Shown: one piece after another, positions 1 to 48,544 of the stretch
How the letters are laid out: each line of letters begins with the position of its first letter
Numbering within the stretch: position 1 is the stretch's first letter
IMG/VR virus record: IMGVR_UViG_3300023214_000077
Span: 1-48,544 of that record
DNA: 48,544 nucleotides
Direction: 5' to 3' (one strand)
DNA from: a virus
Lineage: Duplodnaviria > Caudoviricetes
Translations under genes and position numbers: made by a program
The notes under the pieces: generated by a model
Databases searched by the model: none
What the model was told of the DNA's origin: nothing
The model's input: the letters and a program-made list of their open reading frames with translations, nothing else

Positions 1-234
1 TGGCTGGACAACTGGCAGCAACTTGGGCTCACGATCAACGTCAGACTGAAAGATTTCCACGATCAATGACTTGCAACACAGTCCGCACCCGTCACACGGC
101 AACGACGAACCCAAGCACCCGGGAATAAAATGCCCGTCAATGGTTCTGCATCGCACGACACGCACATGCCCGCCTTCGATTCGTTGAAAGTTAAAAGACA
201 TCGAATGTCCGTTGCTTGTCTGTTGATGTGATCT

Positions 235-537
235 TCACGTCGCTTGTCGTCGCCGTATTCGGCTTCTGAAGCGGTTTTTCGGGATTGATGACACGTGTGT
301 CGAATTCCATCGTTCGCACGCTGCACGGATTCTGACGCCCGCACGCACGCGTTCTTCAATTGTCCTTTCTGCCAGCGTGTACACTTCCGGTCGGATGAAC
401 CGCTTCGTGTTGTACGTCTGGTTCAGTTGCCTGCCTGTCGCTTCTGTGTCGACAGGAAACAGATCAGCGTCGCCCCGAATGTTGAAATTCAGGACGACTT
501 GACCTGTCATCACGGTGATCTTCAATTGACTGAACAT
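235..537 (-). CDS. hypothetical protein, translationally coupled to the AAA ATPase
   Basis: 100-aa ORF whose ATG overlaps the ATPase TGA (TGATG). Confidence 0.55.
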   Translation of the reverse strand: MFSQLKITVMTGQVVLNFNIRGDADLFPVDTEATGRQLNQTYNTKRFIRPEVYTLAERTIEERVRAGVRIRAACERWNSTHVSSIPKNRFRSRIRRRQAT

Positions 538-3218
538 CAGTTGTCAAGACTTATTTCGCGTGACTGCTTCGCACTTGCCGATGCCTTCTTGCCCGTCAAG
601 CTGTACTTGCCCGTCAAGCTGTACTTGCCTGAACGATCCGCATCCAAGAAGCACCCGTTCGCTTCTTCACGCATCGCGTCGACACGATCTTTCGCCGATT
701 CAATGACCGGCACGATGTACGCTGACGCGTCCTTCAGGCTGATCGACATGTCACGTGCAAGCCGACAACAGTTGCGAACTTCGCGACCTGTCCAGTTTTT
801 CGTGCTTGTCGGCGGCTTTTCCTTCGCGTCGATTTCCATCTTGCCCGTGTACATTTTCCACAGTGCCCCGCGTGCAGTTGCACCGGGAATGTCGAAGAAG
901 AACGAACCGAAGCTGAACCGCGATCGCAGTTCTGCCGGAAGACCGTCGACCGAATTACACGTCGCGATCCATAGCGTGCGTTCTGAACTGATCGCACGAA
1001 CCTTCTTCAGTGCCGTTCGAATCTGTGCTTCGCTATTGTGACAGACAATGCCGTCGACGATAAATCGATTTGTGTCTTCGACTTCAATGTCATAGCACCA
1101 CTGTGAATCATCTTCGATGAAATCCATTGCGACAACTTCATCAAACATGACGCTATTCATGACGCGACCTTTTGCGAACCCGCATTCATTACCGGATGAA
1201 AGTTCATTTTTTGCAGATTGAATGAACCCGATCTTTTGCTTGAACAAATTGCCAAACTGTCGCTTCAAAATCAATACTGTTCGACCATTGTGCTTCGATC
1301 GATCTTCCGCAACAGTGTTATGAATTCCTACGCTTCGCAACAATTCACTGATATCTTTTGCCAATGATGGGCTTGTCGTTCCGTAGGCGACGCCGTTTGC
1401 TTGTCGCCAGCCATCGCCAGACATCATGCCACGCAAAACAGCACATCTAATTTCTTCAGACATTCCAAATACAAACGCTGGAATTCTTTTGGTTCGCGAT
1501 TTTCCTTCGCAACACATAAATCCTAACGCTGATACTCTATCATCATTGATGGTCAAGTCTAATCCGTTTTCAGTCTTAACACTGCCAGTGCATTGGCCAA
1601 ACGACCTAACAAATGCACACAAATCGGAATCAGTCTTGTTGACGGAAATCCGCAATCGTCGACCGTTCCATGACCCGTCCGCTAACCAAAGTCCAATCAA
1701 CGTCGCTTCCCGCTGCGTGATCGCTGTGCGACATCCATTTCGTGCAACGACTGTCGACGGTTCAAACATCTTAGTGTGACGCCACACGGTTGCAATCTTG
1801 TCGCCCACCTGAAGGTCGCACGCTTTCTTTTCAACCATTCGGTGACACTTTCGACTTCCTTTCTGTCCAACGCGACCGCTGCCTTTTTCCTTCACAAACA
1901 AATCATGTCCTTCGGTTATGACGACGTGCTTTCCCGACTTTGTCGACACTTCAATGAAGTCTTGCTGTCGGTCGTGTTTGAACGAATTCGTCACACGCTT
2001 ACGGCAAAATCTGCCAAAGGCATTGACTGTATCAACCCAACAAGTCTTTGTTGGATCGTACTGTTCGTGAAATTCTTCAAACGTTGTACGGTGTGATGTG
2101 CCGCCTTTCCGCTTTTCATACCAAATAAATTCTTCGCGACCATGCATCGACTGACCGACAAGCGACCCCTTCGCCGCACCGAAGTCAAGCTTCAGCGTCG
2201 GAATGCCCGCTTCGCGTCCTGCCGCTTTCGCGATCGCCGACTTGCCGACACCGGGAACACCGAACAGCAACATGCCCGCCGCGTCAGTGTCCGTCATTTC
2301 AGTCAAGACGTTCTGCAGTTGATCAAGCGACACGCCGCTGCTGTCGTTCGTGTTGCTGTTGATCGACTTTTCAAGTTCGTCAATGAACACGATTGCGTTC
2401 GGCTTGTTCTTGCCCGTCAACAGACGCTTCATGAATTCCTTGATGTTGTTCAGTCCGACCAGATCATCGAAGTCTTCGTCGCCTTCGAACATCGACAGCC
2501 CCGGCGTCTGACCGATGACACGCTTCTTCGCTTCCCAAAGTTCGCCGACCAGAATGCCCGACTTCCGGACGTTGATCGCGATCAGTTGTTCGACTTGAAA
2601 TTGTGTCAGCCCGCACAACGCTTCGACCGCTTCGTCGATCTGTTCGCTGTCGACTTCCAGATTGACCGACGACAACGTATCGTCGATCGTCTGCCGGATC
2701 ATTTCACGCGTCGGAAGTTCTTCGTCGATGAACAACACGTCGCCCGTCAGTTCGAAAGGCATCTTCAGTTCTTGACCGACAAGGATCAGCGTTCGCCGAT
2801 CTGCCTTGAATTCGTCACGCAAGTTCCCGATGCCCTGTCGCACGACAGGATCAGCAAGCCATTCTTGCTTGATGTGCATGAACACAACGCAGTTCCGGTT
2901 CATGCCGATCAGCTTCTTCAACGCGACGTCGGGCTTGCCGCCTAACGCATCCGGACGATCAGTGATTGCCGCGACGCCTTGCTTCGCCTGTTCGTTGAAG
3001 CAGACGACACCACGAACACCGTCCCAACCATAGAAGCCGACGTTCAGTTCGCGTTCTTTCCGTTCGTCCGACCACTTGTCGCCCTGCGATTCGATGTACT
3101 TCGGAATGCCGCTGATGATTCCGCTGACGAAATCGAACGGATCAGGTGTCGTCGCGACGATCAAAGGCACGCCCGCTGATCGCATTCTAGTGTATCGTTC
3201 GACGATTGAATTCTTCAT
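537..3218 (-). CDS. Ycf46-like AAA+ ATPase with intein
   Basis: Walker A GVPGVGKS, Walker B-like IVFIDELEK, sensor-1 WIATCN, Arg-finger LPAELRSRF, WTGREV; RBS GAAAGGACAACAC before the ATG; extein ~521 aa. Confidence 0.88.
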   Translation of the reverse strand: MKNSIVERYTRMRSAGVPLIVATTPDPFDFVSGIISGIPKYIESQGDKWSDERKERELNVGFYGWDGVRGVVCFNEQAKQGVAAITDRPDALGGKPDVALKKLIGMNRNCVVFMHIKQEWLADPVVRQGIGNLRDEFKADRRTLILVGQELKMPFELTGDVLFIDEELPTREMIRQTIDDTLSSVNLEVDSEQIDEAVEALCGLTQFQVEQLIAINVRKSGILVGELWEAKKRVIGQTPGLSMFEGDEDFDDLVGLNNIKEFMKRLLTGKNKPNAIVFIDELEKSINSNTNDSSGVSLDQLQNVLTEMTDTDAAGMLLFGVPGVGKSAIAKAAGREAGIPTLKLDFGAAKGSLVGQSMHGREEFIWYEKRKGGTSHRTTFEEFHEQYDPTKTCWVDTVNAFGRFCRKRVTNSFKHDRQQDFIEVSTKSGKHVVITEGHDLFVKEKGSGRVGQKGSRKCHRMVEKKACDLQVGDKIATVWRHTKMFEPSTVVARNGCRTAITQREATLIGLWLADGSWNGRRLRISVNKTDSDLCAFVRSFGQCTGSVKTENGLDLTINDDRVSALGFMCCEGKSRTKRIPAFVFGMSEEIRCAVLRGMMSGDGWRQANGVAYGTTSPSLAKDISELLRSVGIHNTVAEDRSKHNGRTVLILKRQFGNLFKQKIGFIQSAKNELSSGNECGFAKGRVMNSVMFDEVVAMDFIEDDSQWCYDIEVEDTNRFIVDGIVCHNSEAQIRTALKKVRAISSERTLWIATCNSVDGLPAELRSRFSFGSFFFDIPGATARGALWKMYTGKMEIDAKEKPPTSTKNWTGREVRNCCRLARDMSISLKDASAYIVPVIESAKDRVDAMREEANGCFLDADRSGKYSLTGKYSLTGKKASASAKQSREISLDN
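588..629. repeat. 18-bp tandem duplication (CTTGCCCGTCAAGCTGTA x2 plus partial) encoding GKYSLT x2
   Basis: Read directly at 588-605, 606-623 and 624-629. Confidence 0.9.
1035..2150 (-). mobile_element. intein with LAGLIDADG homing endonuclease (372 aa) in AAA ATPase
   Basis: LVGQ|SMHGREE...CYDIEVEDTNRFIVDGIVCHN|SEAQ; block B ITEGHDL; motifs LIGLWLADGS and LRGMMSGDG; more AT-rich than flanks. Confidence 0.93.
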
Positions 3219-3302
3219 TGTGTTGTCCTTTCGGTGATGACAGTTGCTTGTCGTGAAAATGCAGGCGGCGACATTGCCGCCTGCGTTGTGTCCGTGATGA
3301 TT

Positions 3303-3725: not shown

Positions 3726-3757
3726 ATTCGTGCCTTGATGTCGGGCAAGGAATTTCG

Positions 3758-4756: not shown

Positions 4757-7498
4757 TTAAGCTGCAAGTGAAAGTGAAATTCGATTGACTGACGATGTCT
4801 TGAACGGACAGTTCCAGTCGTTGCCCTTGTCGCCCGTGCACGGACGTCGTACACCGTCAGGCGTGTGCCATCCGGTGCCATTGCATCGCGAACACTTATT
4901 CGGCGTGACAGCGTCGTCATCGTCGTCGCCGTCATTCCCCCGATCGCTTCCGTCCGGTCGCGTCGGATCAGGCTGATACAATTGTGTCACGACGCCGACT
5001 GCCTGTTCGACAACGCCGTTCAATTCAGGTTCGCCCGAATGCCCCTTCGATTCTGATGCCAGATACACGAAGCCCCAGTCATTCAACGGGCTTGCCGCGA
5101 AGCCGTTGAAGCTTCCGACCGCGAACGACATCTTCTGCCCGATCATCCCGGCAGCGTCCCTTGATGTGATCCAGAAAGACCCGTCAGGAATTTCGAACTT
5201 CCCTGTCGGCCCGCCGTTCCAGACGCCCCAAGAATTCGCCACAAGAAAACACGGTGAATCTTTTTCCGATCCGTACTTCTGCCAGTCATCGCCAGCCAGT
5301 TCGTACGCTGTCGACACCGCGACCCATGCCATGCAGTGCATCCATGACCCTTTTTTGCCCGCGAAGCCGTACTTGTCCCGCTTTGATTCGAATCCGTAAT
5401 CGCTTCCGACTGCCAGTGCATACCCGTTGAAGATCGCGTCGCGTGCTTCTTCGACGTTGTTGACAAGTGCCGCCTTCTGCATCTGGTTTTCGCGAAGGAC
5501 GTTGACCAGTTCTTCAGGTGGACCGCCACGCCTGCCCCAATTGATGCCGATGTTCGCGTCGTACGACGTCGTGTCGATGCTGCCGTATGGTCGACGCAAC
5601 ATGACGCCGCCGTGCTTGCTGACGAACTGTGCCGCCCTGAACGGTGACATGCCCTGCCCGCTGTGCCCGCGATAGCCGTATATCGCTTCTGTCGCACCCC
5701 GAACGCGAAAGTCTTCCGGATCATCATTGATCAGGATTTCGAACGCACGCGACGTGTCGCACGCATTCCTGAAGGCGTGTGACGTGCAGTTGTGAACCGC
5801 GACGTTGTTGCAGATAAACGCATGTTCTTCGCTTGCAACTTCGATGCAGTACACGTACTCAGGGCGATAGCTATCCGGAAGACGCTCTACCTTGACAGGA
5901 AAGGCGAAGCCGCCTTGCCGCTTCTGTGATTCGATAAGCGGGTCTTTCCGTTTCGGAGTCTTTACGCCTAACACCTTCGACACGCCTTCAGATGCGATAT
6001 AAACCGTCGCTGAAGGTTTCCTGTTTTCACGTGCCTTCCGATAACACACTGAAGACTGGATACACGCCGACAAGCACAGCGTGTGCACCTGATGAATAAG
6101 TGGTATGTTTGCCAGCGTCCATGACCCACGATTTCGCGTGTATCGTTCATCGGGATACGACGACCGATTGTCGAAGACCGTCAGTTCCTTCGCCGTCCGA
6201 TTCATCACGTTGACTGAACGCTGCTTCGGAACCTGAACAGACGGAACGAACACCTTGTCGCCGTCTTCAAGTTCGCCAGCCGCGACCCACTTCTGACCGC
6301 CACCGTTGTCGACAAGAATCAAGTGATCTTCTGTGACACGCAGCTTGCGACCGCGAACCGTCAGGTCAATAATCCGCTTCGTCGTTGCCTGCTTAATGAC
6401 ACGAACAACTTCTGTCACGCTGCCTGTCGGCGTCATTACCATATCGCCGACAACGACTTCATTTATCGGCTTCGTGGACATGTCGTGCATCAGCACGTCG
6501 TGTGTTTCCTTGATCATGAGGCCATTCTTGCACAACAGTCGACCGGTGTAAATGTCAAAGCAGTCGCCTGTCGTCTGCCGTTCCTGCGTGTAGCAAGGCG
6601 GATCGAATTCTTGAAGTGCTTTGTACAGAAGCCGTGTTGCGCCCTTCCCGCTTGTCACCGGGACTTCAGACATCATCAGTCCGGTGCTGTTCCAGTCGCG
6701 AAGTTCTTGCGGATCGAACATCAAGCCTGTCTGATACTGCTGACCTGATGTGTCGATCGGTGGACCGCGATCACGATCGTCGCCTTCACCTTCGTCTTGC
6801 GGCATCCCTTTCGGGTACGCCGCGACGAAGCTGTCAAGCTGTGCCTTCATCACGTTGTCGTTGACAGGATCAGGCACAAGCCCGTTCACCATGTAATCGG
6901 GAAGCTTTTCGCCTTCGAAGTCTTTCGGCCCGTCGATATAGCATCCGGCATCGGTGCACACAAGTTGCGTGCCGTCATTCAACGGAAGCACCGTCACCCT
7001 GTTTTCGGATTCCTGAAAGATCGCCCATGCGACCGCGTTGAACAGATCACTGATGCGATCGCGATCAGCCTGCGTCAGCTTCTTCGGTTCAAGCCCGATG
7101 TAATCTGCGAACAGCTTTTCAAGGACAGGTTCAAGTTCCGGTCGATACGACACACTGCCCGCGACCCGCGACAGTTCGTCGCCTGCCGTCTTGTGAATCA
7201 TTCGTGCCTGTTCCGTCGTCATTGGACGTGTCGACTGTGCGACCGCCATTCGATGATAGAACCATGCAAGCCCAAGAAGATTTGGCTTGCCCTTGATTGC
7301 GTCGCGAACTGGCTGAACTGCCCGCCGAAGTGACGCGTCTGTCGGTTCGACGAAAACTGTGACCGTTTCGCCGCCGTTGTTGTCGTTCCCGCCATCGTTC
7401 CAGCCGCCGCCGCCGCCGAAGTCAATCCGGTCTTTGAACAGCATGAATACGACGGCACCGATGATGATGACCAGAAAGATCAGTCTTTTCGGTTCCAT
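4757..7498 (-). CDS. membrane-anchored papain-like (C1) cysteine peptidase with intein
   Basis: N-terminal TM; spliced QTTGD-CTSHA (Gln oxyanion and catalytic Cys), SWMHCM (His), VANSWG (Asn); C-terminal CSRCNGTG Zn-finger-like motif. Confidence 0.85.
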   Translation of the reverse strand: MEPKRLIFLVIIIGAVVFMLFKDRIDFGGGGGWNDGGNDNNGGETVTVFVEPTDASLRRAVQPVRDAIKGKPNLLGLAWFYHRMAVAQSTRPMTTEQARMIHKTAGDELSRVAGSVSYRPELEPVLEKLFADYIGLEPKKLTQADRDRISDLFNAVAWAIFQESENRVTVLPLNDGTQLVCTDAGCYIDGPKDFEGEKLPDYMVNGLVPDPVNDNVMKAQLDSFVAAYPKGMPQDEGEGDDRDRGPPIDTSGQQYQTGLMFDPQELRDWNSTGLMMSEVPVTSGKGATRLLYKALQEFDPPCYTQERQTTGDCFDIYTGRLLCKNGLMIKETHDVLMHDMSTKPINEVVVGDMVMTPTGSVTEVVRVIKQATTKRIIDLTVRGRKLRVTEDHLILVDNGGGQKWVAAGELEDGDKVFVPSVQVPKQRSVNVMNRTAKELTVFDNRSSYPDERYTRNRGSWTLANIPLIHQVHTLCLSACIQSSVCYRKARENRKPSATVYIASEGVSKVLGVKTPKRKDPLIESQKRQGGFAFPVKVERLPDSYRPEYVYCIEVASEEHAFICNNVAVHNCTSHAFRNACDTSRAFEILINDDPEDFRVRGATEAIYGYRGHSGQGMSPFRAAQFVSKHGGVMLRRPYGSIDTTSYDANIGINWGRRGGPPEELVNVLRENQMQKAALVNNVEEARDAIFNGYALAVGSDYGFESKRDKYGFAGKKGSWMHCMAWVAVSTAYELAGDDWQKYGSEKDSPCFLVANSWGVWNGGPTGKFEIPDGSFWITSRDAAGMIGQKMSFAVGSFNGFAASPLNDWGFVYLASESKGHSGEPELNGVVEQAVGVVTQLYQPDPTRPDGSDRGNDGDDDDDAVTPNKCSRCNGTGWHTPDGVRRPCTGDKGNDWNCPFKTSSVNRISLSLAA
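5789..6562 (-). mobile_element. intein (258 aa; endonuclease degenerate or partly deleted) in the peptidase
   Basis: TTGD|CFDIY...VTEDHLI...VYCIEV...AVHN|CTSH; no intact LAGLIDADG pair visible. Confidence 0.92.
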
Positions 7499-7538
7499 TG
7501 TGTGCCCTTCCCTGAACGGACTGTGCTTGCTTGTTCGT

Positions 7539-8075
7539 TTACTTTGTGCGTGTTGTCTTCTTCTTTGGATCGTTCGCCGTCATGACTTTCGGCAAGACGA
7601 CATCGTTCAGCGACTTCTTCGCCGCATCGTCTGCGATGTTGTCAAACAGCAGACAGTACGCTTCGATCAGATCGGCACGCATGTTCGTCGGCGTGACCTT
7701 CTTGACAGGCGTCGCCGTGCTGCCTTCGTCCTTCTTGAACGGATTGATCTTGTCACGCTGTTCAGGCGTCAAGACAAGAAACCAGACCGCGACCAGACCG
7801 CCGCCGATGACCAGTACCCACGTGAAAGTGTCACCCATTGATTCATCCTTTGAAAGTGCTTGTTCGTCTTCACCCGGTTGCATTCCGTCGTCTTTTTCGC
7901 GATTCCGATTTCGCCAGTCGAACCAGTTTCCGTCACCGCGATTCCAGATTTTCGTGCGTGACCAGTTCCAGACACGCGACGGCTTGTTGCAGCCTTGAAC
8001 AAGGATCGCGAATGCGAACAGAATAATCAAGCCGATGAAGATCGTCTTGAAGTTCTTTGTGATGAAGTCCATCAT
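7539..8075 (-). CDS. membrane protein (two hydrophobic segments, possible lipobox VQGC)
   Basis: IFIGLIILFAFAILVQGC and WVLVIGGGLVAVWFLV. Confidence 0.75.
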   Translation of the reverse strand: MMDFITKNFKTIFIGLIILFAFAILVQGCNKPSRVWNWSRTKIWNRGDGNWFDWRNRNREKDDGMQPGEDEQALSKDESMGDTFTWVLVIGGGLVAVWFLVLTPEQRDKINPFKKDEGSTATPVKKVTPTNMRADLIEAYCLLFDNIADDAAKKSLNDVVLPKVMTANDPKKKTTRTK

Positions 8076-8138
8076 GTGCAGTCCGTTGTTCGGCGTGCTT
8101 CCATCGGTGCACGCGACAAGTTGCGTTCTGCCGGGATT

Positions 8139-8579
8139 TTACGCGAAGACTGCAGTCCGCGTCAATCCGCGTCGTGACTGGAATTCAGCGATCAGATCAG
8201 CTTGCAGGTCGCACGCATCCGGCAGAATCCGGATCGAACACCGCTGCAGCAATTCAATGTCGAAGAATTCCGGATCGAACAACTGCTTCAGAAAGATCAT
8301 ATTTGACAGCGTGATTCTTTCGTCACCTGCGTCGTCGTACGCTTCGTGACACGTAGGACACAACAGATTCACGACGCGACGATCTTCAAGTCGCGGCTTC
8401 GACGTGATGTGACATCTTTGAATGATCCACTTCGCACCGTAGTCGATAGGCTTATCCCTGAATGCGGCTGTGCGTCCGCAAGACCAGCAGAAGCCGCCCT
8501 GCTGTGCATAGTCCCTGAAGTCATGATATATCGCCACATGCGAACGCTTGTCCGCTTTCCAGTCTTTAAGCCAGCCCAT
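8139..8579 (-). CDS. HNH-like Zn-binding nuclease (NinG-like)
   Basis: CWSCG...RCHI...NLLCPTCH pattern. Confidence 0.65.
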   Translation of the reverse strand: MGWLKDWKADKRSHVAIYHDFRDYAQQGGFCWSCGRTAAFRDKPIDYGAKWIIQRCHITSKPRLEDRRVVNLLCPTCHEAYDDAGDERITLSNMIFLKQLFDPEFFDIELLQRCSIRILPDACDLQADLIAEFQSRRGLTRTAVFA

Positions 8580-8598
8580 TTGATCAGTTGCTTTCTTT

Positions 8599-9060
8599 TC
8601 AGTTCACGCGGGTGCCGTCGACGTTCACAAACTGTAAATCAATTTCGCGGCTTCCGCCATCTTCATAAGATACTACCAGCATAGCACGAAGCTTCACACC
8701 ACGCATTCGGATTTTCCCCGGCACCCTAATTCGCTTGTCAACAACATACCGAACCGTGTCGCCGTTCGGTGTCTTATCTATCCTTTCAAAGACAATGACG
8801 CCGATGACGGCTTCATTTTGGTATTGTTGCTGAACAGTGCTTTCGATTATGCGAAGATGTTCAAGCTTTTCATCTTGCGTCAACTTGAAGTGTTCCATGT
8901 ATTCAGCCTTCGCCTTCGCCCGTTCGCGACGACTAGCTGATTCATCGACGTGTTCCTGATACCCTTCCGGATTCATGATCACGCCGACTACGCCGAATGC
9001 GACGCAACCGATCAGGATCAGAAGACCGAATGAAACCAGCGTGAAGAATAGCTTCTTCAT
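8599..9060 (-). CDS. membrane-anchored hypothetical protein
   Basis: Start moved to MKKLFF at 9060 (RBS GAAAGGGA); N-terminal TM. Confidence 0.7.
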   Translation of the reverse strand: MKKLFFTLVSFGLLILIGCVAFGVVGVIMNPEGYQEHVDESASRRERAKAKAEYMEHFKLTQDEKLEHLRIIESTVQQQYQNEAVIGVIVFERIDKTPNGDTVRYVVDKRIRVPGKIRMRGVKLRAMLVVSYEDGGSREIDLQFVNVDGTRVN

Positions 9061-9094
9061 GAAGATGTCCCTTTCGAATTGTGATCTGCTTGTT

Positions 9095-9712
9095 CTATCC
9101 GACAACGTTGAAGATAGGCGATTCAAGCCATGTTGTCGATTGTTTCTGTCGATGCGGCATGATCAAGTTGTCAACTTCTTCGATCACTGGCACGAAGTTC
9201 GGTCGTGCTTTTCTGCACCGATTCGGAATAATCCATTCGATCGGAACTGCATGTTCTTGGCAAATTTCTATATTTACTTTCGATTCAAAGCCGCCCAAGA
9301 AGCGAAGCCAGAACGGGTGACACGGGTGCACCGGGAAGGCGAAAGTACGTTGTTCGACGGTCTTTGTCTTCAGTTCACGACGATTGAAATGCACAAGATA
9401 CATACTGACGCCGCCGAATTCCGCACGCCGAAGAAGATGTGCAAGCTGCTTCGATTGTTTGTCGTCCGTGATCCGTGTTGCCAGATGAAGCGACGCTTGA
9501 CTGCACACTTTGCATTCGACATTGAACTGCTGACCGACCGGCTTTCGCACGCCTTCGATGTCCGGATACGACTTGATGCGGATCAGTTCACCGTCAGGCT
9601 TCACCGACGTCATGACGCCGTACCTGCCGCCCGTGATTTCGTCCGATGACTTGATCACGTGAAGAAGTTCTTTTTCAAGTCCCGTGCCCTTCAGCTTCGG
9701 CGGCGTGTTCAT
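9095..9712 (-). CDS. RecU-like Holliday junction resolvase, PD-(D/E)XK
   Basis: YPDIEG...FNVECK...QLAHL...GGVSMYLVHF. Confidence 0.7.
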   Translation of the reverse strand: MNTPPKLKGTGLEKELLHVIKSSDEITGGRYGVMTSVKPDGELIRIKSYPDIEGVRKPVGQQFNVECKVCSQASLHLATRITDDKQSKQLAHLLRRAEFGGVSMYLVHFNRRELKTKTVEQRTFAFPVHPCHPFWLRFLGGFESKVNIEICQEHAVPIEWIIPNRCRKARPNFVPVIEEVDNLIMPHRQKQSTTWLESPIFNVVG

Positions 9713-9716
9713 GACG

Positions 9717-9893
9717 TCACCCTTTCAGGAATGCGAACCAGAACAGAATCTTCAGCATGACTTCAGTGCCGTGCCCTTCGTTCCGCCGTTCCGGATTCGT
9801 GAACAGCCTGATGACCTGAATGCCATCGCGATAGCCTGCGACGATCGCCGATGCGATTGTGTTGTCATCGTCATCGACTTCCATGCCTTGCAT
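9717..9893 (-). CDS. 58-aa GNAT acetyltransferase-like fragment (absent from the ORF track)
   Basis: Hand translation MQGMEVDDDDNTIASAIVAGYRDGIQVIRLFTNPERRNEGHGTEVMLKILFWFAFLKG; motif-A-like PERRNEGHG; ATG overlaps the upstream TAA. Confidence 0.55.
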   Translation of the reverse strand: MQGMEVDDDDNTIASAIVAGYRDGIQVIRLFTNPERRNEGHGTEVMLKILFWFAFLKG

Positions 9894-10378
9894 TATTCAG
9901 CCGGACGTGTGAAAGGATTCTGATAGTTGAACGCCTTCGTCGCTTCGTCAGCCTGATCGAAGACACTGCTGACAGCGATCGACAGCGATTCATGTTCGCA
10001 CTTCGCGAACACTTTGTCTTCGCCAGTTTCGACAACCGTCACGATGAAGTTGCCGTCACGATCCAGCGACACGCTGCAGGCAAGGGATTCACAGTCATCG
10101 TTGTGATGTGCGATCGCCGTCATGCCGTCCGTCAGCCGCTTCAGTGCCGCACTGTTCGGTTCAGATGTGTCGTGATCCAGTTGATGAAGTCCAGCCCTTG
10201 CAGTCACGACAACGTCCTGAAGCAGTTCCGCGACCGTGTGACGCATAACTTCATCGCCGCCGACTTCCCGGTTCAGTTCTTCGCATAAATGCGACAGCCT
10301 GCATACGGATTCTTGATAGTTTGCGTGAAGACCGACGACGTCTGTCTTGACGGCTTGTTCAGCCATTTGTTCGAACAT
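9893..10378 (-). CDS. hypothetical protein
   Basis: 161-aa ORF with RBS GAAGGGACAA. Confidence 0.7.
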   Translation of the reverse strand: MFEQMAEQAVKTDVVGLHANYQESVCRLSHLCEELNREVGGDEVMRHTVAELLQDVVVTARAGLHQLDHDTSEPNSAALKRLTDGMTAIAHHNDDCESLACSVSLDRDGNFIVTVVETGEDKVFAKCEHESLSIAVSSVFDQADEATKAFNYQNPFTRPAE

Positions 10379-10465
10379 GGTATTGTCCCTTCAGTTTGGT
10401 ATTCGTATAGTTGGTTCTGTCACAAGTTTCAGTTCACTTCATTTCTTTGTCAAGGATCACGACAC

Positions 10466-10609
10466 ATGAACTTCGACGTCAATCTTCTAGCTGCCATCGG
10501 TGACGGCAATCTGATTCGGTTCGTACTTGGAATCGCGATCGGATGCTTCATCGGCTGGTTCATTCCTGCACCCGCTTTCATTGAAAAGCTGAAGAACCGG
10601 AAGCCTTGA
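10466..10609 (+). CDS. small single-TM membrane protein (47 aa)
   Basis: MNFDVNLLAAIGDGNLIRFVLGIAIGCFIGWFIP...KNRKP; RBS AAGGA. Confidence 0.6.
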   Translation: MNFDVNLLAAIGDGNLIRFVLGIAIGCFIGWFIPAPAFIEKLKNRKP

Positions 10610-10992
10610 CCGCCGCATCGTATGTTCGCATCAAGCCTTCTTCGATGCTGAATGTCGATCGCCAGTCAAGGCACGAATTGATCACCGCAAAGTCGCCGCA
10701 CGTGTGTTCCATGTCGGCGGCTTCTGCGTTGACATAGTCCCGCATGATTTCGACGCCGGACATTTCTTCGATCCGGTTCATCATGCCGTTGACGCTTTCC
10801 GTTTCCGTGCCGCCGACGTTCATGATGTGAAAGCCTTCCAGATCGCGACTGATGCCTTGAACCGCAAGGCTGTTCGCACGTGCCACGTCATCGACGTATG
10901 TGAACGCCTGCGACCTTGTGTCCACGGTTCAGAAGATCGCGTGCTGTCGCCGATCCGATCATGCCCGTGCCGCCTGTTAATAGTATTTTCAT
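10578..10992 (-). pseudogene. NAD-dependent nucleotide-sugar epimerase/dehydratase remnant (central deletion plus frameshift)
   Basis: N-terminal MKILLTGGTGMIGS Rossmann motif joins out of frame near 10905 to C-terminal FTYVDDVARAN...MNVGG...IEEGL. Confidence 0.8.
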
Positions 10993-11077
10993 TTCATCAC
11001 CTTTCTGATAGAATTCTTCGTGCTTGTTTGTTTGCGTTCGTCGACTTCTTGTGTCCTTGTCGGCGAACGCTTTTTCT

Positions 11078-12580
11078 TTAGAACGGCATGTCGTCGCCCG
11101 TGTCCATCGACCCGTCAGAATACCTTCGCGTCGATGACGTCGATGACTGTTCTGACACCCGACTGCGATCCGCTGCACGCTTGTCTTCTTCAGACATTTC
11201 ACTGATCACGCCCGTCGCACCTTCCCAACGATACGACACGCGACCCGTCCTGCCGTGCCTGTTCTTGCGAACGTATATGTCAAGCTGATCATCGTGCACG
11301 GTTCGTTCCATGTTCGGATCAGCGTCTTCGCGTTCTGACAAGTCCTTGTTCGGACGATGAAGAAGCATGACCGTGTCAGCATCCTGTTCGAAGTCGCCGG
11401 TGCCTTTCAGGTCTTCCAGCTTCGGAATTCCGTCAGCCGACTTGCGATTCAACTGTGCTGCAAGGAACAACGCGACCTTGTGATCTGACTTCAGTTGCCG
11501 GAAACCTTCGCTGATGATGTTCAGCCGATCAAGATCGGTTCGCGTTCGCTGCCGCGTGCGAATGATCTGTGCATAGTCGACGAAGATTGCCTGAACTGGA
11601 TCGCGTTCGCGTGTGATCGCATCTTCGCACAGCGTGACGATCTGACTGACCTTGCCACAGTCCGCGTGCAGTTCGATCGGCAGGCGGTGAATCGCTTCGT
11701 ACGCATCCGACACCCGCGACCGTGTTGTCTGTGACGGACCTTCGCCGACGATCTGCCCTGCCTTCACCTTCACGTGCAGCAAGTGCTTCTTCATGCCTGC
11801 GTGACAGCACGCCATCAGTTCAAGGATCACGTCGTACGGAACTTCAAGCGTGATGAACATGACCCTGATGCCAAGCTTCGCCAGTGCAAGCACCATGTTG
11901 ATCGTGACCGCTGTCTTCCCGATCGAAGGACGTGCACCGATGATGTTGTACGACGACGCCTTGAACTGCCCGATGACCTTGTCAAGTTCCGTGAAGCCCG
12001 TGTCGAATCCGGCTTCGACCTTTCCGTCAAGCCGTTCACACAACGCGTCGACGTTGTCGTGATAATCCTTCGCCAGTATCCCGCCGCGACCTGTCGCGAT
12101 CGAAGACGTGCGACTGATTTCAAGCATCGCTTCGCGTGCCTTGCCTAGTGCATCCGACGTGTTCCATGTGCCCGACAGCAGTTCATACGGCTGAAGTTCT
12201 GTCAGAATCTTTCGACGTCCGGACCTGTCGATGACGCGTCGCAGATAGAACAAGCCGTTGCGTGTGTCCTTTTCCGCTTCCCAATACCGTTCGGCGAATT
12301 CTGCCGACAGCGACACGTCACGCCGCATGATCGGTTCGACCGCCGCGACGATGTCGGATCGTGACGGAAGCCCGTCGACGTTGTTCGTCACGTCGATGAT
12401 CGCCTTCACCGCTTTGAAATAGTCGCCCGTATCCCACATGTCATCAGGGTCAAGCTGCATCGCGATCTTCTTTGCAAGACGCGGATCAAGCATGACGTGT
12501 GCGACAAGCATCTGTTCTTCGCGGATCGAATCAAGTTTCAGTCTGACGAAATCGTCGCCTTCAATTTTCGGTATGTCCAT
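11078..12580 (-). CDS. dnaB: replicative DNA helicase
   Basis: GARPSIGKT, IFVDYAQ, AQLNR, DLKGTGDFEQDAD, KNRHG. Confidence 0.95.
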   Translation of the reverse strand: MDIPKIEGDDFVRLKLDSIREEQMLVAHVMLDPRLAKKIAMQLDPDDMWDTGDYFKAVKAIIDVTNNVDGLPSRSDIVAAVEPIMRRDVSLSAEFAERYWEAEKDTRNGLFYLRRVIDRSGRRKILTELQPYELLSGTWNTSDALGKAREAMLEISRTSSIATGRGGILAKDYHDNVDALCERLDGKVEAGFDTGFTELDKVIGQFKASSYNIIGARPSIGKTAVTINMVLALAKLGIRVMFITLEVPYDVILELMACCHAGMKKHLLHVKVKAGQIVGEGPSQTTRSRVSDAYEAIHRLPIELHADCGKVSQIVTLCEDAITRERDPVQAIFVDYAQIIRTRQRTRTDLDRLNIISEGFRQLKSDHKVALFLAAQLNRKSADGIPKLEDLKGTGDFEQDADTVMLLHRPNKDLSEREDADPNMERTVHDDQLDIYVRKNRHGRTGRVSYRWEGATGVISEMSEEDKRAADRSRVSEQSSTSSTRRYSDGSMDTGDDMPF

Positions 12581-14703: not shown

Positions 14704-14735
14704 TCTGAATACCCTTTCGCTTGCCTTGATTCATG

Positions 14736-14770
14736 AACGCATTCGGCACCCACCGACTGCGTTTTTTTTT
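14736..14770 (+). terminator. possible terminator hairpin (plus strand)
   Basis: ACGCA-TTCGG...CCGA-C-TGCGT followed by T9. Confidence 0.4.
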
Positions 14771-37772: not shown

Positions 37773-38210
37773 CTAACTAGGCAACGTTTCTGACGGTGCA
37801 CCACTTTCGCCGGGATAGTAATAGATGCCATCTGTGCCCGCCGTCGCCGACCATGTGATGACTTCTTTCGTGTCCGGATTGACGTCGATCGAAAACGACT
37901 GAATCAGGACGCAAGGAAAGACCCAATAGTCAGAATCAGTCGATGATTCCCACAGCACAAGCTTGACGTTGTCGCCGACCCGCATCAAGTTGTACACCTT
38001 GCTGTCAGTGTCGAACTTGCCTTCGAACGACATTGTCGCATCGCGACGTCCTGCCTTCCGATTCGTGAAGCCGCCTGAATCGCTGTCGCCCCATGCCGTT
38101 TCACCGACTGATTCGCTGATGTTGAATGCCGTGATCCGTGCAATAAGTTGACCGGCGACGACGACTTTTCCTTCAGCACCCGATCGTGCTGATGTTGAAT
38201 TCGTTGTCAT
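37773..38210 (-). CDS. major tail tube protein
   Basis: 145 aa; GRRDATMSFEG...ITWSATAGTDG tube pattern; position upstream of the chaperone. Confidence 0.8.
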   Translation of the reverse strand: MTTNSTSARSGAEGKVVVAGQLIARITAFNISESVGETAWGDSDSGGFTNRKAGRRDATMSFEGKFDTDSKVYNLMRVGDNVKLVLWESSTDSDYWVFPCVLIQSFSIDVNPDTKEVITWSATAGTDGIYYYPGESGAPSETLPS

Positions 38211-42893: not shown

Positions 42894-44519
42894 TTATGTG
42901 CTGGAACTTGAACTGCTGACGCTTGACGCACTTTGCGAACTGCTGCTGCTGTTCGTCAAGCTGCTTGCCGACGATGTCGACGCACTTGACGACGAACTGC
43001 TGTTCGTCAAGCTGCTGCTGTTCGAAGATGACGTGCTGTTCGTCTGCGACGATTCTGACTGCGACGAACTTGTGTGATGCGAACTGCTGCTGCTGTTCTT
43101 CGAACTGCTTGAAGAATTGCTGCTGCTTTCCGATGTCTGCGTCGAAGTCGATGACGATGATCCAGATGAAGCCGACGATCCGCCTGAAGACGAACTTGAC
43201 GACGACGACTGTGATGACGCCGACTGACTTGATGAATCGGTCGATGTCGACAGCAAGATCGTCGATTCGCTGGACGATGACGCCGTCGATCGGCTTGATG
43301 TCGCCGTCGACTGTGACGAACTGGACACCGTGCGTGATGATCCAGACGAAGAACTTGATCCGCTTGATTCGATCCTGTCGCCGTCGCCGTGGTCCCACTT
43401 GTGATCAAGGTTCAGTGCATACCCGCGACCGCCGAAGCGACCTGTCGTTGCCGTCAAGGACGTCACACGCCCAAGAAGCCACGCTTCGACGTCCTGCCGT
43501 CGTGAATCCGTCAGCACTGCATTGAACGCACAGAAGAAGCCGAACGTGTTATCGCCCGACGCACCTGCCGCGAAGCACGCTTCATTCGCGTCTGTGCCAA
43601 GTGCACCTTGCGTCGTCGACACTGTGTCGAACAAGTTGCCGTTGATCCAGACTGACACGATGTTCGTGACCGTTGAATCGTATTCGATCGTCAGAAGCAC
43701 TTCGCCCGCAAGCATTCTTTGCGGAATGCGAATGCCTTCTGATGTTGGACCGAACGCGACGATGTACGTCTGATCGCTGTCGTCGAAGCTGATTGACAAG
43801 CCTTCGCTGTTCACTGCATCTGTCTGATACAAGAACACGACGTTCGTGTCGCCGCCGTTCAGTTCGAAGTGATTGTCAAGGCGAAGCCCGATGAAGAACG
43901 TCGCTTGACTTGCAGTTGCCGCGATCGAAGGCGTGAAGACCGCACGATCGTTCCCGACGCACCGGATGCCCGCCCGCCCGTTGAAGACGCCCCTGATCGG
44001 CGGATTCGCTGCCGACACTGCGAAGTTGTTTCCGTCCAGTGCCGCGACCGTCGATACTTCTTCGCCGATTCCTGCATCGCCGACCATTGTGTACCGGCGA
44101 AGATCATAGAACGGATGAAGTTCTTGCGTGCCTGTCAGATCAGTCGGCTGAAATTCGCGTGCCGTTGAACTTGAAGATGAACTGACCGACGACGATTGAC
44201 TTGAAGCCGATGAACCGCTTGACAGCGATTGTGACGATTGCGAAGTCGAAGACACCGAAGAAGTCGAAAGTGACTGCGACGATGACGACGTGACGCTGCT
44301 TGTGTTCGATGACGTCGATGATGATTCTGAATTCGTGACAGACGACGTCGATTGTGAACTTGATTCGCTGGACGAAGACGAACTTCTGACAGAACTTGTC
44401 GAAGAAGATGACTTCGAAGACGACAGCGAAGACGATATTGACGATGAACTTGACAGTGTCCGTGACGAACTGCTGCTGTTCGATTGTGTCGATGACGACA
44501 GTGATGATGTTGACGGCAC
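42894..44519 (-). CDS. Ser/Thr-rich protein with central LamG/ConA-like domain
   Basis: ~120-aa and ~155-aa Ser blocks flank a globular domain (VSVWING...FNAVLTDSRRQDVEAWL); GTG start with RBS GAAAGGATTCA. Confidence 0.8.
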   Translation of the reverse strand: MPSTSSLSSSTQSNSSSSSRTLSSSSSISSSLSSSKSSSSTSSVRSSSSSSESSSQSTSSVTNSESSSTSSNTSSVTSSSSQSLSTSSVSSTSQSSQSLSSGSSASSQSSSVSSSSSSTAREFQPTDLTGTQELHPFYDLRRYTMVGDAGIGEEVSTVAALDGNNFAVSAANPPIRGVFNGRAGIRCVGNDRAVFTPSIAATASQATFFIGLRLDNHFELNGGDTNVVFLYQTDAVNSEGLSISFDDSDQTYIVAFGPTSEGIRIPQRMLAGEVLLTIEYDSTVTNIVSVWINGNLFDTVSTTQGALGTDANEACFAAGASGDNTFGFFCAFNAVLTDSRRQDVEAWLLGRVTSLTATTGRFGGRGYALNLDHKWDHGDGDRIESSGSSSSSGSSRTVSSSSQSTATSSRSTASSSSESTILLSTSTDSSSQSASSQSSSSSSSSGGSSASSGSSSSTSTQTSESSSNSSSSSKNSSSSSHHTSSSQSESSQTNSTSSSNSSSLTNSSSSSSASTSSASSLTNSSSSSQSASSVSSSSSST

Positions 44520-44604
44520 AGTGAATCCTTTCGTGCGTAGTTGCGATTGTACGGTTCGTACGGTTCAAAATATACGGCGAACCGTGCTTGAAAGTAAAGC
44601 CCTA

Positions 44605-47600
44605 TTATAACGGTTCGATGCCGCCCGACTGCGACGACAGCGATGACGCTGAAGACACTGAAGATGAACTGCTGTTGTCATTCGTCTGACTTGAAGACGA
44701 AGAATATGACTGACTGCTGAGCGAACTATCAGTGTTTATTGCCCAAAATTCGAAGTTATCGGCTGAACCATTTCCCGGCAATCGAAGCCCGTGATCCGTT
44801 GCCGACTGATTCACGCTGCTTGTGTGTTCCAGCGTCGCCCGAAGCGTGCTGCCTTCGTAGCATTCACACACGAAGCTTGTGCCCCGCAAGACAACGCGAA
44901 CTTCGTATGTCGTCGAAGCTGACCAACCGCTGATTGCCGCTGAATCGCGAACCGTTTCTGAAAAGCCGCTGATTTCCGTCAATACGAATTCGGCTGATGA
45001 CGTGTTTCGGATACCGCACACGAAGCCGTTGCCGCTGGAATATCGAATGCCAATTCCCGCCGGTGTTGAATCTGCCGTGTCCTTCGTGATGTCGGCAACG
45101 ATAATTCCATCAGATTCGCCGACGTCCATTGTCGCAAGCCTGTTCCAAGGCGGGATTCCTGCACCGCCGCCGTCTGTCGCTTGATTCGACTGAACTTCAG
45201 TAGTCTCGATTACATTTGTCCAGCCGTTACCGCTGATATCAATGTCAGGCGTGTGTGATGGAAGTGATGTACCGTTCGAATCCGTGAACCTGTCCCTGAA
45301 TGCAATGTCTGCCGATGAACTACTGCTTTCGCTTTCTGCCGCCGACTGCGTGCTTGTTGAAGATGAACTATTCGACGATGAAGACGACAAGCTGCTTGTT
45401 GATGACGAAGACAAGCTTGAAAGCGATGACAACGACGATTGCGAAGACAGGCTTGAAAGTGATGACAAGCTGCTTCCGGAAGACAACGACGAAGCCGTCG
45501 ACGATGAATGACTTGATGAAAGCGATGACGAACTTGATGAACTTGACGACGACACACTTGAAAGGCTGGACAGCGACGAAGTCGAAGAACTGGACAGTGA
45601 CGACAGGCTTGATGTCGACGAAGACGACTGACTTGAAACCGAAGACGACGACAGGCTTGAACTTGACGACAGTGATGACGTCGACGCCGATGATCCGGAC
45701 GACACGCTTGAACTTGATTTCGATGAAGATTCAGATGACGACGACAGCGACAGCGAACTGACGCTGCTTGACGACAATGTCGAAGTCGAAGATGTGCTGT
45801 TCGTCTGTGACGACGTGCTGCTGCTGACATCGACGCCGGGATTGATCACGATCGTGCACGCGTACGCATCGTCGCCCGCTGTCTTCGTGAATGTCCTGAT
45901 GCCGGAATTGAACTGCAGGTTCGCGTCGCTGCTGCCTTCAACGACCCACGAATACGACGTTGCCGTGCCTTGTGAATCGCCGCCACCCGTCAGTGTGATG
46001 CCGTTGCCGTCTTCCGCGAAGCCGCACCGGATCACTTCTGCGAAGCTGTGATCGACCGCGACGTCGGGTGACTGGAACGTGACAGACGCCTGATCGTGAT
46101 TGTTGTCTGCTGTCACGCTGCCGACATTCCTGTACACCCACACGAACAGACGTGCGTTCGTCGATGATGCGAAGACAGGTTCGTCGCCTTCGTCGCCCGT
46201 GACGAAGTCCCTTGTGTACACGCGACCGTACAAGCCCGTGACGAAAGGCGTCATCGTGTATGAAAGCGTCCAGCCTGCAGGCGTCGACGCCGGTGCGTTC
46301 GGTGCCACAAGTGCGACGATGTACGTGTCGCCGTCGTTCGCTGCCGGAAGTGCGATGCGATCGCTGTTCGCTTCGCCGAAGCTGATCTTGTTCGGTGCTT
46401 CGATCGGCGAAGAACTTGAACTGCTTGACACCGATGACGACAGTGTGCTGCTTGTGCTGTACGAACTTGTCGAACTGCTGCTGATCGTGCTTGACGTCGA
46501 CAGTGACGACAGGCTTGAAGTCGAACTGCTTGACTGTGAACTTGACGACAGCGTCGAAGTCGAACTGCTTGTTGACACCGATGATCCGGACGACAGTGAT
46601 GTCTGATCGCTGATCGACGACGTGCTTGAACTTGACAGGCTGGATACCGACGAACTTGAAAGCGTCGACGTCGAAGATGAAGACGATTCCGACTGTGTGC
46701 TGCTTGTCGACTTGGAACTTGTCGAACTGGATTCCGAAGAACTGGACAAGCTGCTTGACGATGATGAACTGTTCACGCTGCTTGTTGACGATGACAGTGT
46801 CGACGTGCTGACTGACGATCCGCTGCTTGAAGTCGACTGCGAACTTGACGACGATGACGAACTGCTTGAAAGACTTGACGTGCTGGACGACGAAGCCGAC
46901 TGCGAACTGCTGCTTGTTGACTTCGATGATTCTGACGAAGACTGTGACGATGAAGACAGCGTTGATGTGCTGGAACTGGATAGTGTGCTTGTGCTTGAAC
47001 TGGATTCCGACGAAGCCGTTGATGTGCTTGACGACGACAGCGTGCTTGCCGACGATTCGGTCGAACCGCTGCTTGAACTTCGCGACGAACTGGAAGACGA
47101 CAGTGTGCTACTGCTGACTGAAGATGTCGATGATGATTCTGATTCCGTTGACGATGTGCTATACGACGACGTCGAACTGCTGACGGTCGATTCTGACTGA
47201 CTTGAACTTGACGACGACAGCGTCGATGTGCTGATCGAAGACGATGACAGTGTGCTGCTGCTTGTGCTTTCCGACGATCCTGTCGACAGCGTTGATGTTG
47301 ACGATTCGCTGCTTGCCGTCGACGTGCTGGAACTGCTGACAGATGAAGTGCTGACAGATGATGGACTGCTGACAGTTGAACTTGTGCTGTACGACGACGT
47401 GCTGCTTGACTGGCTTGAAGTCGACAGGCTGGAAAGTGACGACGTTGAAACCGAATCCGAACTTGTTGAACTGGACGACACCGATGACGTCGACACTGAA
47501 GACCCTGAAGACAGCGTGCTGCTGTCACTGGAACTGGACACTGAACTTGCGGTCGAAGTCAGAATGCCCGTTGTCGTGCTTTTTGAAGACGATGACGTAC

Positions 47601-47697
47601 TGTTCGACTGCGATGACGAACTGACTGATCGCGACGACGATGAAGCCGTCGACACTGAAGATGCTGTTGAAAGATCGCCCAACCAGAACAACGCCAT
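44605..47697 (-). CDS. very large Ser/Thr-rich mucin-like protein with two globular domains
   Basis: Start MALFW at 47697 (RBS GGAAGGGA); ~420-aa Ser block, domain with TPAGWT, ~170-aa Ser block, ConA-like domain. Confidence 0.8.
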   Translation of the reverse strand: MALFWLGDLSTASSVSTASSSSRSVSSSSQSNSTSSSSKSTTTGILTSTASSVSSSSDSSTLSSGSSVSTSSVSSSSTSSDSVSTSSLSSLSTSSQSSSTSSYSTSSTVSSPSSVSTSSVSSSSTSTASSESSTSTLSTGSSESTSSSTLSSSSISTSTLSSSSSSQSESTVSSSTSSYSTSSTESESSSTSSVSSSTLSSSSSSRSSSSGSTESSASTLSSSSTSTASSESSSSTSTLSSSSTSTLSSSSQSSSESSKSTSSSSQSASSSSTSSLSSSSSSSSSSQSTSSSGSSVSTSTLSSSTSSVNSSSSSSSLSSSSESSSTSSKSTSSTQSESSSSSTSTLSSSSVSSLSSSSTSSISDQTSLSSGSSVSTSSSTSTLSSSSQSSSSTSSLSSLSTSSTISSSSTSSYSTSSTLSSSVSSSSSSSPIEAPNKISFGEANSDRIALPAANDGDTYIVALVAPNAPASTPAGWTLSYTMTPFVTGLYGRVYTRDFVTGDEGDEPVFASSTNARLFVWVYRNVGSVTADNNHDQASVTFQSPDVAVDHSFAEVIRCGFAEDGNGITLTGGGDSQGTATSYSWVVEGSSDANLQFNSGIRTFTKTAGDDAYACTIVINPGVDVSSSTSSQTNSTSSTSTLSSSSVSSLSLSSSSESSSKSSSSVSSGSSASTSSLSSSSSLSSSSVSSQSSSSTSSLSSLSSSSTSSLSSLSSVSSSSSSSSSSLSSSHSSSTASSLSSGSSLSSLSSLSSQSSLSSLSSLSSSSTSSLSSSSSNSSSSTSTQSAAESESSSSSADIAFRDRFTDSNGTSLPSHTPDIDISGNGWTNVIETTEVQSNQATDGGGAGIPPWNRLATMDVGESDGIIVADITKDTADSTPAGIGIRYSSGNGFVCGIRNTSSAEFVLTEISGFSETVRDSAAISGWSASTTYEVRVVLRGTSFVCECYEGSTLRATLEHTSSVNQSATDHGLRLPGNGSADNFEFWAINTDSSLSSQSYSSSSSQTNDNSSSSSVSSASSLSSQSGGIEPL

Positions 47698-47698
47698 T

Positions 47699-48544
47699 TC
47701 AAGAATCCCTTCCGGTGACTGCCTTCGCACTGAAGGACGTGACCGTTGTCTTCGTGGTCGCGTACCCCGTCAAGAACTTCGCCGTGTTCGGGATGATAGC
47801 AGGATCGAAGGCAGTTGAAGAAGACGAAGTTGAATTCGTCTGTGACGAACTGCTGCTGCTGAAGCTGGAAACCGACGAAAGTGATGTACTTGTCGAATCT
47901 GATTGCGTTGATTCCGACGACGAACTTGACGATGACAGCGAACTTGTGCTGCTGCTGGACACCGAAGATGTCGATGACAGCGTCGAACTACTGGACACCG
48001 AAGATGTCGAACTTGACGACACTGACGATGAAGAACTGACCGACGATGATGACGACGATGACTGTGTTGAAGAAGAAGACAGCGACGACACCGACGACGT
48101 GCTGCTGCTTGACAGCGTACTTGTCGAACTGGACGACAGCGAACTGCTTGAACTGACCGACGATGACGATGACAGGCTTGACAAGCTGCTGCTTGACAAC
48201 GAACTTGAACTCGAAAGACTCGACGTACTCGATGAACTGCTGCTTGACGACGAACTTGAACTCGAAAGCGAGCTGCTGCTTGACGACGACTGCGTCGATG
48301 TCGATGAAGACGATGAAAGACTGGACGACGACAGTGTCGAAGTGCTCGAACTGCTGCTGATAGATGACGTTGAACTTGAACTGCGCGTCGATGTGCTGCT
48401 GCTGGACAAGCTTGAAGACGACGACGAAGACGACGAAGAACTTTCGGCGATAAAGTCCCAGTTCACGTTCCCGCCGTTGTCAACGCAGTTGTCCGCCGCG
48501 TCGATCGTGTTGCCGCCCGATGCGTCTGAATTCGAAATCGTGCT
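47699..48544 (-). CDS. Ser-rich protein, 5' end outside the window
   Basis: Frame is open to the window edge (STISNSDASGGNTIDAADNCVDNGGNVNWDF), followed by a ~210-aa Ser block. Confidence 0.75.
   Translation of the reverse strand, partial: STISNSDASGGNTIDAADNCVDNGGNVNWDFIAESSSSSSSSSSSLSSSSTSTRSSSSTSSISSSSSTSTLSSSSLSSSSSTSTQSSSSSSSLSSSSSSSSSSSSSTSSLSSSSSLSSSSLSSLSSSSSVSSSSSLSSSSTSTLSSSSTSSVSSLSSSSTQSSSSSSSVSSSSSVSSSSTSSVSSSSTLSSTSSVSSSSTSSLSSSSSSSESTQSDSTSTSLSSVSSFSSSSSSQTNSTSSSSTAFDPAIIPNTAKFLTGYATTKTTVTSFSAKAVTGRDS

Follow-up and report, generated by a model that had tools for sequence, protein, structure and literature searches.

The window analysed here is the whole 48,544-nucleotide stretch of IMG/VR virus record IMGVR_UViG_3300023214_000077, a single contig from a tailed phage (Duplodnaviria; Caudoviricetes) in which the trinucleotide GAG and its complement CTC are nearly absent from both strands. 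The contig encodes tape-measure and head-tail adaptor proteins, DnaB, RecT, exonuclease VIII, CsrA, HNH endonucleases, methyltransferases and glycosyltransferase-like proteins. Terminase, portal and capsid families had no match among the 56 window open reading frames (ORFs) scanned and relatives of the phage lie on contigs of 85-104 kb, indicating that about half of the genome is probably missing and that the window likely represents about half of one tailed phage genome. No tRNA genes were found in the window. The clue to the host is the CsrA-like gene, whose bacterial matches comprise 11 loci, 10 of them from Planctomycetota; this one gene points to Planctomycetota as the likely host. The features referred to below are the following, with O/E denoting the ratio of observed to expected sites.

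1..48544, no strand: whole contig (G000), single contig, part of a tailed phage, 53% G+C, GAG/CTC O/E 0.02
1035..2150, minus strand: AAA ATPase intein with LAGLIDADG domain; 1 surviving GAG/CTC against ~24 expected, purged like the remainder
5789..6562, minus strand: intein of the 913-aa (amino acid) ORF; 4 surviving GAG/CTC against ~24 expected
6521..15023, no strand: longest GAG/CTC-free stretch, 8.5 kb
16335..17291, minus strand: intein-like insertion in the RecT gene; 7 surviving GAG/CTC against ~25 expected; missing from the relative L003
18020..19069, minus strand: exonuclease VIII-like (DUF3799) gene, a query for finding relatives
19234..19509, minus strand: CsrA-like gene
20459..21780, minus strand: two class I S-adenosylmethionine (SAM) methyltransferases, inside a glycosyltransferase cluster
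27285..27628, minus strand: HNH-gene remnant resembling the HNH ORFs at 25089 and 29728; 3 surviving GAG/CTC
34251..36182, minus strand: tape-measure protein gene
37773..38210, minus strand: putative tail-tube gene, so placed by its position between the adaptor and tape-measure genes; query for related viral loci
42894..48466, minus strand: three Ser-rich ORFs
37762-44718, 18840-25066 and 29086-34546: other long GAG/CTC-free stretches

Near-total loss of GAG and CTC

Compared with a first-order Markov expectation, the plus strand carries 10 GAG where 760 are expected and 25 CTC where 870 are expected. In total, 35 sites remain of ~1,640 expected (O/E ~0.02), a loss of ~98% or ~50-fold, and the next rarest trinucleotide, TGG, has an O/E of 0.38. 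These counts bear out the near-total avoidance on both strands that a preliminary description of the sequence had noted by eye. To separate the word from codon use we analysed 53 hand-picked ORFs (44,736 nt), with 100 synonymous shuffles as the null for off-frame sites. Glutamate is encoded by GAA 864 times and by GAG 7 times, and CTC accounts for 3 of 1,044 leucine codons; in related loci GAG makes up 50% of Glu codons and CTC 14.5% of Leu codons (medians). Off-frame sites are equally scarce, with GAG present 5 times against 118.8 in the shuffles in frame 1 and 8 against 202.6 in frame 2, and CTC 2 against 74.8 and 3 against 301.4. Thus, the k-mer counts against Markov and codon-shuffled nulls, a check that the preliminary description had proposed, gave ratios far below 1 with every codon position purged. 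Non-coding DNA is depleted as well (2 against 41 and 5 against 61; together 7 against 102), and all 16 NGAGN contexts are purged, each with 0-7 observed for 39-209 expected. The three Ser-rich ORFs contain 470 Ser-Ser codon pairs, of which 6 include GAG/CTC, where 120 would be expected.

The loss extends to ribosome-binding sites. GAG occurs in the 20 bases upstream of the start in none of the 53 genes and AAGG in 26 of them, consistent with the earlier observation that AAGG(A) is used over GGAG, whereas GGAG lies upstream of 184 of 708 long ORFs in related loci. Many of the phage sites read AAGGA, alongside the phage-encoded CsrA (19234-19509), and AAGGA resembles the CsrA binding core. 

The purge is not an artefact of assembly, as contigs from a second sample agree with the window: compared in pieces with window positions 1-20000 and 22001-42000 (40 kb), they showed 6 single-letter differences where covered. 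The two samples compared are from one study, and one of them may be the window's own source. None of the 6 variants creates a GAG/CTC site and one (5958, in the intein of the 913-aa ORF) removes one, at a depth of 2.1 that makes an error possible; six positions are too few for a test at population level. At window positions 96-163, another contig, 3- to 4-fold deeper in both samples, fits the first 163 bases with a 9-base gap and then diverges.

Nearly half of the surviving sites (17/35) lie in the three inteins and six stretches of HNH genes or their remnants, which make up 11% of the length (p = 4e-8), and six more cluster at 48210-48345, near the contig end in the Ser-rich ORF region. The inteins and HNH elements are themselves still 3- to 20-fold depleted, the partial depletion expected under ongoing purging. 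These elements are probably recent arrivals, absence from a relative being seen for the RecT insertion only (L003); if so, DNA gained later is less purged than the backbone, as in restriction-site avoidance.

Other words are avoided less strongly. GCGC (14 against 459), GGCC (32 against 311), CCWGG and several 6-mers are depleted, which points to ordinary restriction systems in the hosts of the phage, and GAG/CTC is purged harder than either GCGC or GGCC. GAAG/GACG, GAAC and GATC are not avoided, and no gapped three-letter word is purged in the window (lowest O/E 0.71). The TA dinucleotide (0.28) and TAA/TTA (0.54) are also low, in part explained by Type I site geometry (partner ratio 0.69-0.80), and on the plus strand GG stands at 0.39 and CC at 0.75.

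Several further features of the contig were observed. Methyltransferase, glycosyltransferase-like and cupin genes are intermingled with HNH genes at 20459-31347, and very long Ser/Thr-rich ORFs lie close to the head-tail genes at 31351-33300 and 42894-48466; the glycosyltransferase/cupin cluster together with these ORFs suggests that virion proteins are glycosylated. At 10578-11202 lies the remnant of a nucleotide-sugar epimerase gene, of which the N-terminal and C-terminal parts are left, in two frames that overlap, and the central part is gone.

The purge among relatives and in a separate group of cultured phages

Among the relatives read, the purge is specific to the lineage of the window phage. 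The tail-tube query retrieved 80 related viral loci at 38-59% identity, several of which are copies of one phage; none has a GAG/CTC O/E below 0.2 and the median is 0.86. The two closest relatives (76-87% protein identity) lie on contigs of 85 and 95 kb. The lowest ratios, 0.45-0.47, come from three loci of one phage (L075, L079 and L080), in which the depletion is partial and even, strongest in GAGC and GGAG; in this relative GGCC stands at 0.11-0.14 and CAG at 1.75. It possibly represents an intermediate state of the purge. Three metagenome loci of one unpurged phage, with 63-64% identity in the exonuclease, have GAG/CTC ratios of 0.71-0.82 and lack GCGC, as does the window. Alignment of the exonuclease against viral contigs found no relatives with DNA and the DnaB query gave 1 distant locus only. 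GAG O/E is 0.90-1.08 in the 11 bacterial CsrA loci, showing that the purge was not taken over from host composition.

Among cultured phages we examined ten of the PA73 group, two as whole genomes and eight as stretches of 21-37 kb. Five have nearly lost the word, namely RcTitan (0.01), PA73 (0.03), KL1 (0.04), Halfdan (0.09) and Langgrundblatt2 (0.14), while Kmi2C (0.48), Axy19 (0.51), Loki (0.63), Tlacuache (0.96) and Kimi (1.12) show weak loss or none. The window exonuclease matches cultured phages at only 20-29% identity, so the PA73 group is a lineage separate from the window phage. The five, siphophages of Proteobacteria, resemble the window in their GAG/CTC ratios of 0.01-0.14. They purge CCWGG too, for the most part GATC, and a large number of Type I-like sites, and the sites surviving in them carry a Type I footprint that those of the window lack. 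The purge is independent of frame, strand, flank and Type I partner (below) and is repeated in a separate group of cultured phages. Halfdan infects E. coli K-12.

In PA73, 14 of the 28 surviving GAG are ribosome-binding sites, all 14 reading GGAGT and never GGAGG. ACTC/GAGT is the best-surviving context in six of six purged genomes, five of which (all but the window) are related to each other; in the window itself this is not significant (p = 0.50). Gapped words are heavily purged in this group, where three tested phages have 86-284 depleted bipartite cells: in PA73, 284 of 14,889 are depleted (control 3), with GA-N6-TC present 2 times against 274 and GA-N8-TC 6 against 283, in Halfdan GA-N6-TC is present 8 times against 230, and the purge is heavy in RcTitan too. 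Sphingomonas phage Kimi, which keeps GAG (1.12), is depleted in CAG (0.43) and GAAG (0.34), both of them reported from gut bacteria as motifs of phosphorothioate (PT) modification; these losses may also be footprints of Type I or IIG systems.

Selection on a DNA word and its candidate readers

Mutation bias, effects on translation (tRNA supply or mRNA cleavage) and avoidance of CRISPR protospacer-adjacent motifs (PAMs) are very improbable causes of this loss. In favour of this group of causes, the single-transition neighbours TTC, CTT, GAA and AAG are enriched 1.36- to 1.98-fold. However, a silent change that removes a frame-1 GAG (xGA-Gxx) or CTC (xCT-Cxx) must as a rule fall on the middle base, and one that removes a Glu GAG or Leu CTC codon on the third. 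Since frame-1 sites (5 against 119 for GAG, 2 against 75 for CTC) and frame-0 Glu codons, which need a third-base change, are both gone, no single-base mutation process accounts for the purge. GAG and CTC are alike missing from the coding strand and also from non-coding DNA, in a window with no tRNA gene found, and this excludes tRNA supply and a single mRNA-cutting motif. As for PAMs, the depletion reported in PMC4246573 has a median log2 of about -0.6 (~0.66-fold at most), far from the log2 of about -5.5 for GAG/CTC, and the window is enriched in GAA/TTC and AAG, the PAMs of types I-C and I-E. The frame test has therefore already largely refuted this group of explanations. The depletion exceeds sub-word and codon expectation on both strands, as in restriction-site avoidance. 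All frames, both strands, non-coding DNA and Shine-Dalgarno sequences are affected, and the purge is selection on a DNA word, as the preliminary description had proposed over codon usage.

The word selected against could in principle be the core common to many longer sites, with no reader of three bases at all: Type I half-sites, Type IIG, Type III and BREX-1 motifs, MnlI CCTC and Dnd GAGC would each remove a share, and their union across host strains would have erased GAG. Of the 21 Type I sites listed in PMC12707154 (table 1), 3 do begin with GAG, the window avoids Type I-like sites clearly (GCA-N6-TGC 0 against 40, GA-N8-TCC 9 against 84, and CCA with a T partner), and Type II-like sites are avoided as well (GCGC and GGCC, above). 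A partner test was used, which asks whether a T lies 6-9 bases after the A, a geometry taken from the same table. In the window, CCA without a T partner is at expectation (420 against 403, 1.04) and CCA with a partner is depleted to 0.29, the dip (0.44-0.56) being found at 6-9 bases only, with ratios of ~1.0 at 4, 5, 10 and 11; the contrast of 1.04 and 0.29 in the same genome indicates that the test works here. GAG, by contrast, is lost irrespective of a partner, at 0.020 without (12 against 601) and 0.022 with one (23 against 1,039), and 22 of 34 surviving sites carry the T partner, the background rate (67% in control positions). Partner-less GAG is thus purged 50-fold in the window. In the PA73 group, survivors outside ribosome-binding sites carry the Type I partner less often (8/34 and 33/111 against ~60%), and a union of longer sites contributes there. 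Partner-less GAG is nevertheless purged 14-fold in PA73 (25 against 345) and 60-fold in RcTitan, arguing for a second, partner-independent pressure in these phages too. A 98% purge by union would also require ~245 three-base partner cells, yet 35 of 15,804 are depleted in the window over all half-sites, at most 8 per half-site, and among other words only 15 of 1,226 6-mers and 2 of 441 5-mers are purged. Sister cores are seldom purged (NNNCAG 5/50, NNNAAG 6/48, NNNGAC 0/52, NNNGAA 0/52). A union of longer restriction sites therefore fits the window poorly and we regard it as improbable; the simplest reading is an agent requiring three bases only. Of the causes suggested in the preliminary description, a reader of a three-base core fits, and a set of restriction-modification (R-M) or BREX sites sharing GAG does so poorly; as to escape from a host defence, the selection on a DNA word is supported and defence as the agent is a further step. 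That step, a host defence of some kind reading three bases, appears probable to us.

Our leading, though tentative, candidate is a host defence against phages that recognises GAG/CTC as a word in duplex DNA. It would most likely be one of the PT systems in the SspC/BrxC family, for instance BREX type 4. The best published match, a partial one, is BREX type 4 phosphorothioation at N*CTC: in Bacteroides salyersiae, whose system is the one CTC-reading member mapped, PT was found at ACTC (0.2%), CCTC (17%) and TCTC (4%), and the enzymes that introduce it are BrxP and BrxC, which are homologous to SspB/D and SspC (PMC12914056). The core CTC is avoided in the window, as such a reader would predict. 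The family is present in Planctomycetota. Among 401 genomes sampled across the phylum and 401 of Planctomycetia, DUF4007 was found in 8 and 19 (~5%), respectively, and adjoins SspC in 6 of 7 phylum and 10 of 10 class neighbourhoods scanned, with SspD in 5 and 7 among the ORFs listed. A complete brxP-brxC-pglZ-brxL cluster is present in one phylum genome (G022) and brxP in another (G119). BrxP was also found on plasmids in 2 records, one a Methanosphaera plasmid. The neighbours of the planctomycete SspBC(D) clusters (L144-L154, L106-L112) vary, with SspE in L148, SspF/G in L107 and L152 and PbeA-like genes in L110 and L112; L144 has a second SspB/SspC-like pair, and L145, L151 and L152 hold unannotated genes of 600-800 aa within the Ssp cluster. 

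Several observations weigh against a PT reader. The purge of GCTC (9 against 499) is no weaker than that of the other contexts, though GCTC is not among the PT contexts reported for B. salyersiae, and the order CCTC > TCTC > ACTC with GCTC spared was not seen, the window ratios being 0.020, 0.017, 0.030 and 0.018 for CCTC, TCTC, ACTC and GCTC (p = 0.50). The ACTC excess is likewise not significant in the window (p = 0.50), and the other five purged genomes are interrelated. Full-length BrxP was found in just 2 of the 401 phylum genomes (those named above), and the BrxC model matched none of the 401 Planctomycetia genomes, control genomes being unmatched too. The characterised Ssp system reads CCA, and partner-less CCA is not depleted here (420 against 403); overall CCA depletion (0.57; relatives 0.83-1.44), which at first sight would favour Ssp, is a Type I footprint by the partner test and gives it no support. 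Modification by PT systems reaches only some of the sites, and motif dependence of the attack by SspE or BREX-4 is not established in the available parts of PMC12914056 and PMC9646914. Finally, the planctomycete host is suggested by one gene, CsrA, and phages of Proteobacteria show this purge as well.

Close behind the PT reader in likelihood, if on its own rather unlikely, is a reader of the methylation type acting on these three bases, either an R-M pair or a modification-dependent nuclease. The R-M form would be a relaxed MnlI-like site, with self marked by N6-methyladenine (m6A) in GAG and methyl-C in CTC; the nuclease form would be a VchI homologue binding G6mAG once phage DNA had been adenine-methylated. 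All of the evidence for a partner-independent reader of three bases applies equally to such an agent, which would also account for GCTC, a context outside the range of the mapped PT system. VchI from Vibrio cholerae binds duplex G6mAG, requiring both flanking G with the 5' neighbours unimportant, but it did not cut in that study (10.1101/2025.05.22.655678). Moreover, no GAG methyltransferase of three-base specificity was found in the open-access literature searched, and none of the 56 window ORFs scanned was recognised as an adenine DNA methyltransferase, about half of the genome being likely missing. Amino-methyltransferases carry the motif (D/N/S)PP(Y/F/W). It was not read in the translations of the two SAM methyltransferases at 20459..21780, which are thus likely not DNA adenine methyltransferases. 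More doubtful still is a base-modifying defence toxin, a DarT-like ADP-ribosyltransferase or DNA deaminase, lethal at CTC on single-stranded replication intermediates so that both strands are purged. Toxins of these kinds have short motifs, and the mechanism suits a flank-independent three-base word on both strands. However, TNTC, the motif of DarT2, stands near expectation in every form but TCTC (TATC 0.94, TTTC 0.94, TGTC 1.07), and no CTC-specific member was found in the literature searched. The Dpd system was discarded because its motif is CxGCxG, not GAG (PMC10164549).

Mechanism, meaning and comparison with known systems

Under a three-base reader, each new GAG/CTC site would lower fitness on reader-carrying hosts, being attacked, nicked or marked there, and synonymous changes at any of the three positions would remove it. 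GAG and CTC codons would vanish and AAGG would replace GGAG in ribosome-binding sites, while inteins and HNH genes that had only just arrived would be the last to be purged. On a broader view, towards which we are about evenly disposed with a slight lean to doubt, a widespread unnamed defence family may read bare GAG/CTC in Planctomycetota, Proteobacteria and perhaps archaea, so that unrelated phages independently gave up a Glu codon, a Leu codon and the Shine-Dalgarno core; the purge would then be the first readable footprint of its target. From a flank-independent 50-fold loss of a three-base word one would predict a defence that finds a target every 30 bases, and the loss implies that codon table and ribosome-binding sites are a price a phage can pay to escape. 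As Halfdan grows on E. coli K-12, the reader is open to a direct hunt. It would also become testable whether the motif has to be present in the invading DNA for PT defences (Ssp, BREX type 4) to act. For any phage genome, the partner test can tell a genuine reader of a short word from a Type I footprint.

Site avoidance by phages is of a known kind, and no published report of GAG/CTC avoidance in phages was found in the open-access literature searched. Avoided restriction sites are normally 4-8 bases long. The cases in Rusinov et al. 2018 (PMC6286503) are alike in the genome-wide, both-strand loss of a short word; the window differs in that the word has three bases, is non-palindromic and costs two codons and the GGAG core. 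GAG or trinucleotides are not mentioned in the available part of that paper, which reports no avoidance of Type I sites in general, whereas the window and the PA73 group do avoid them.

Of the candidate systems, VchI, a wH-HNH protein, resembles the agent sought in reading exactly GAG in duplex DNA with little effect of the 5' neighbours, but it requires m6A, showed no cleavage and is known only from Vibrio. The SspABCD-SspE and SspFGH systems (PMC9646914) form a defence family whose motif has 3 bp and lies on a single strand, and ~5% of the Planctomycetia genomes sampled carry it. Their motif is CCA, however, whose loss here follows Type I geometry, and the need of SspE for the motif in the invader is left open in that source. 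BREX type 4 (PMC12914056) shares the CTC core and the loose 5' base, belongs to a family found in Planctomycetota, and has as its weakest marked context ACTC, the best-surviving context of the purged phages. It differs in that GCTC, purged here, is not reported as marked there and that phage avoidance is not reported in the part available, where the anti-phage activity of variant BREX systems is said to await study.

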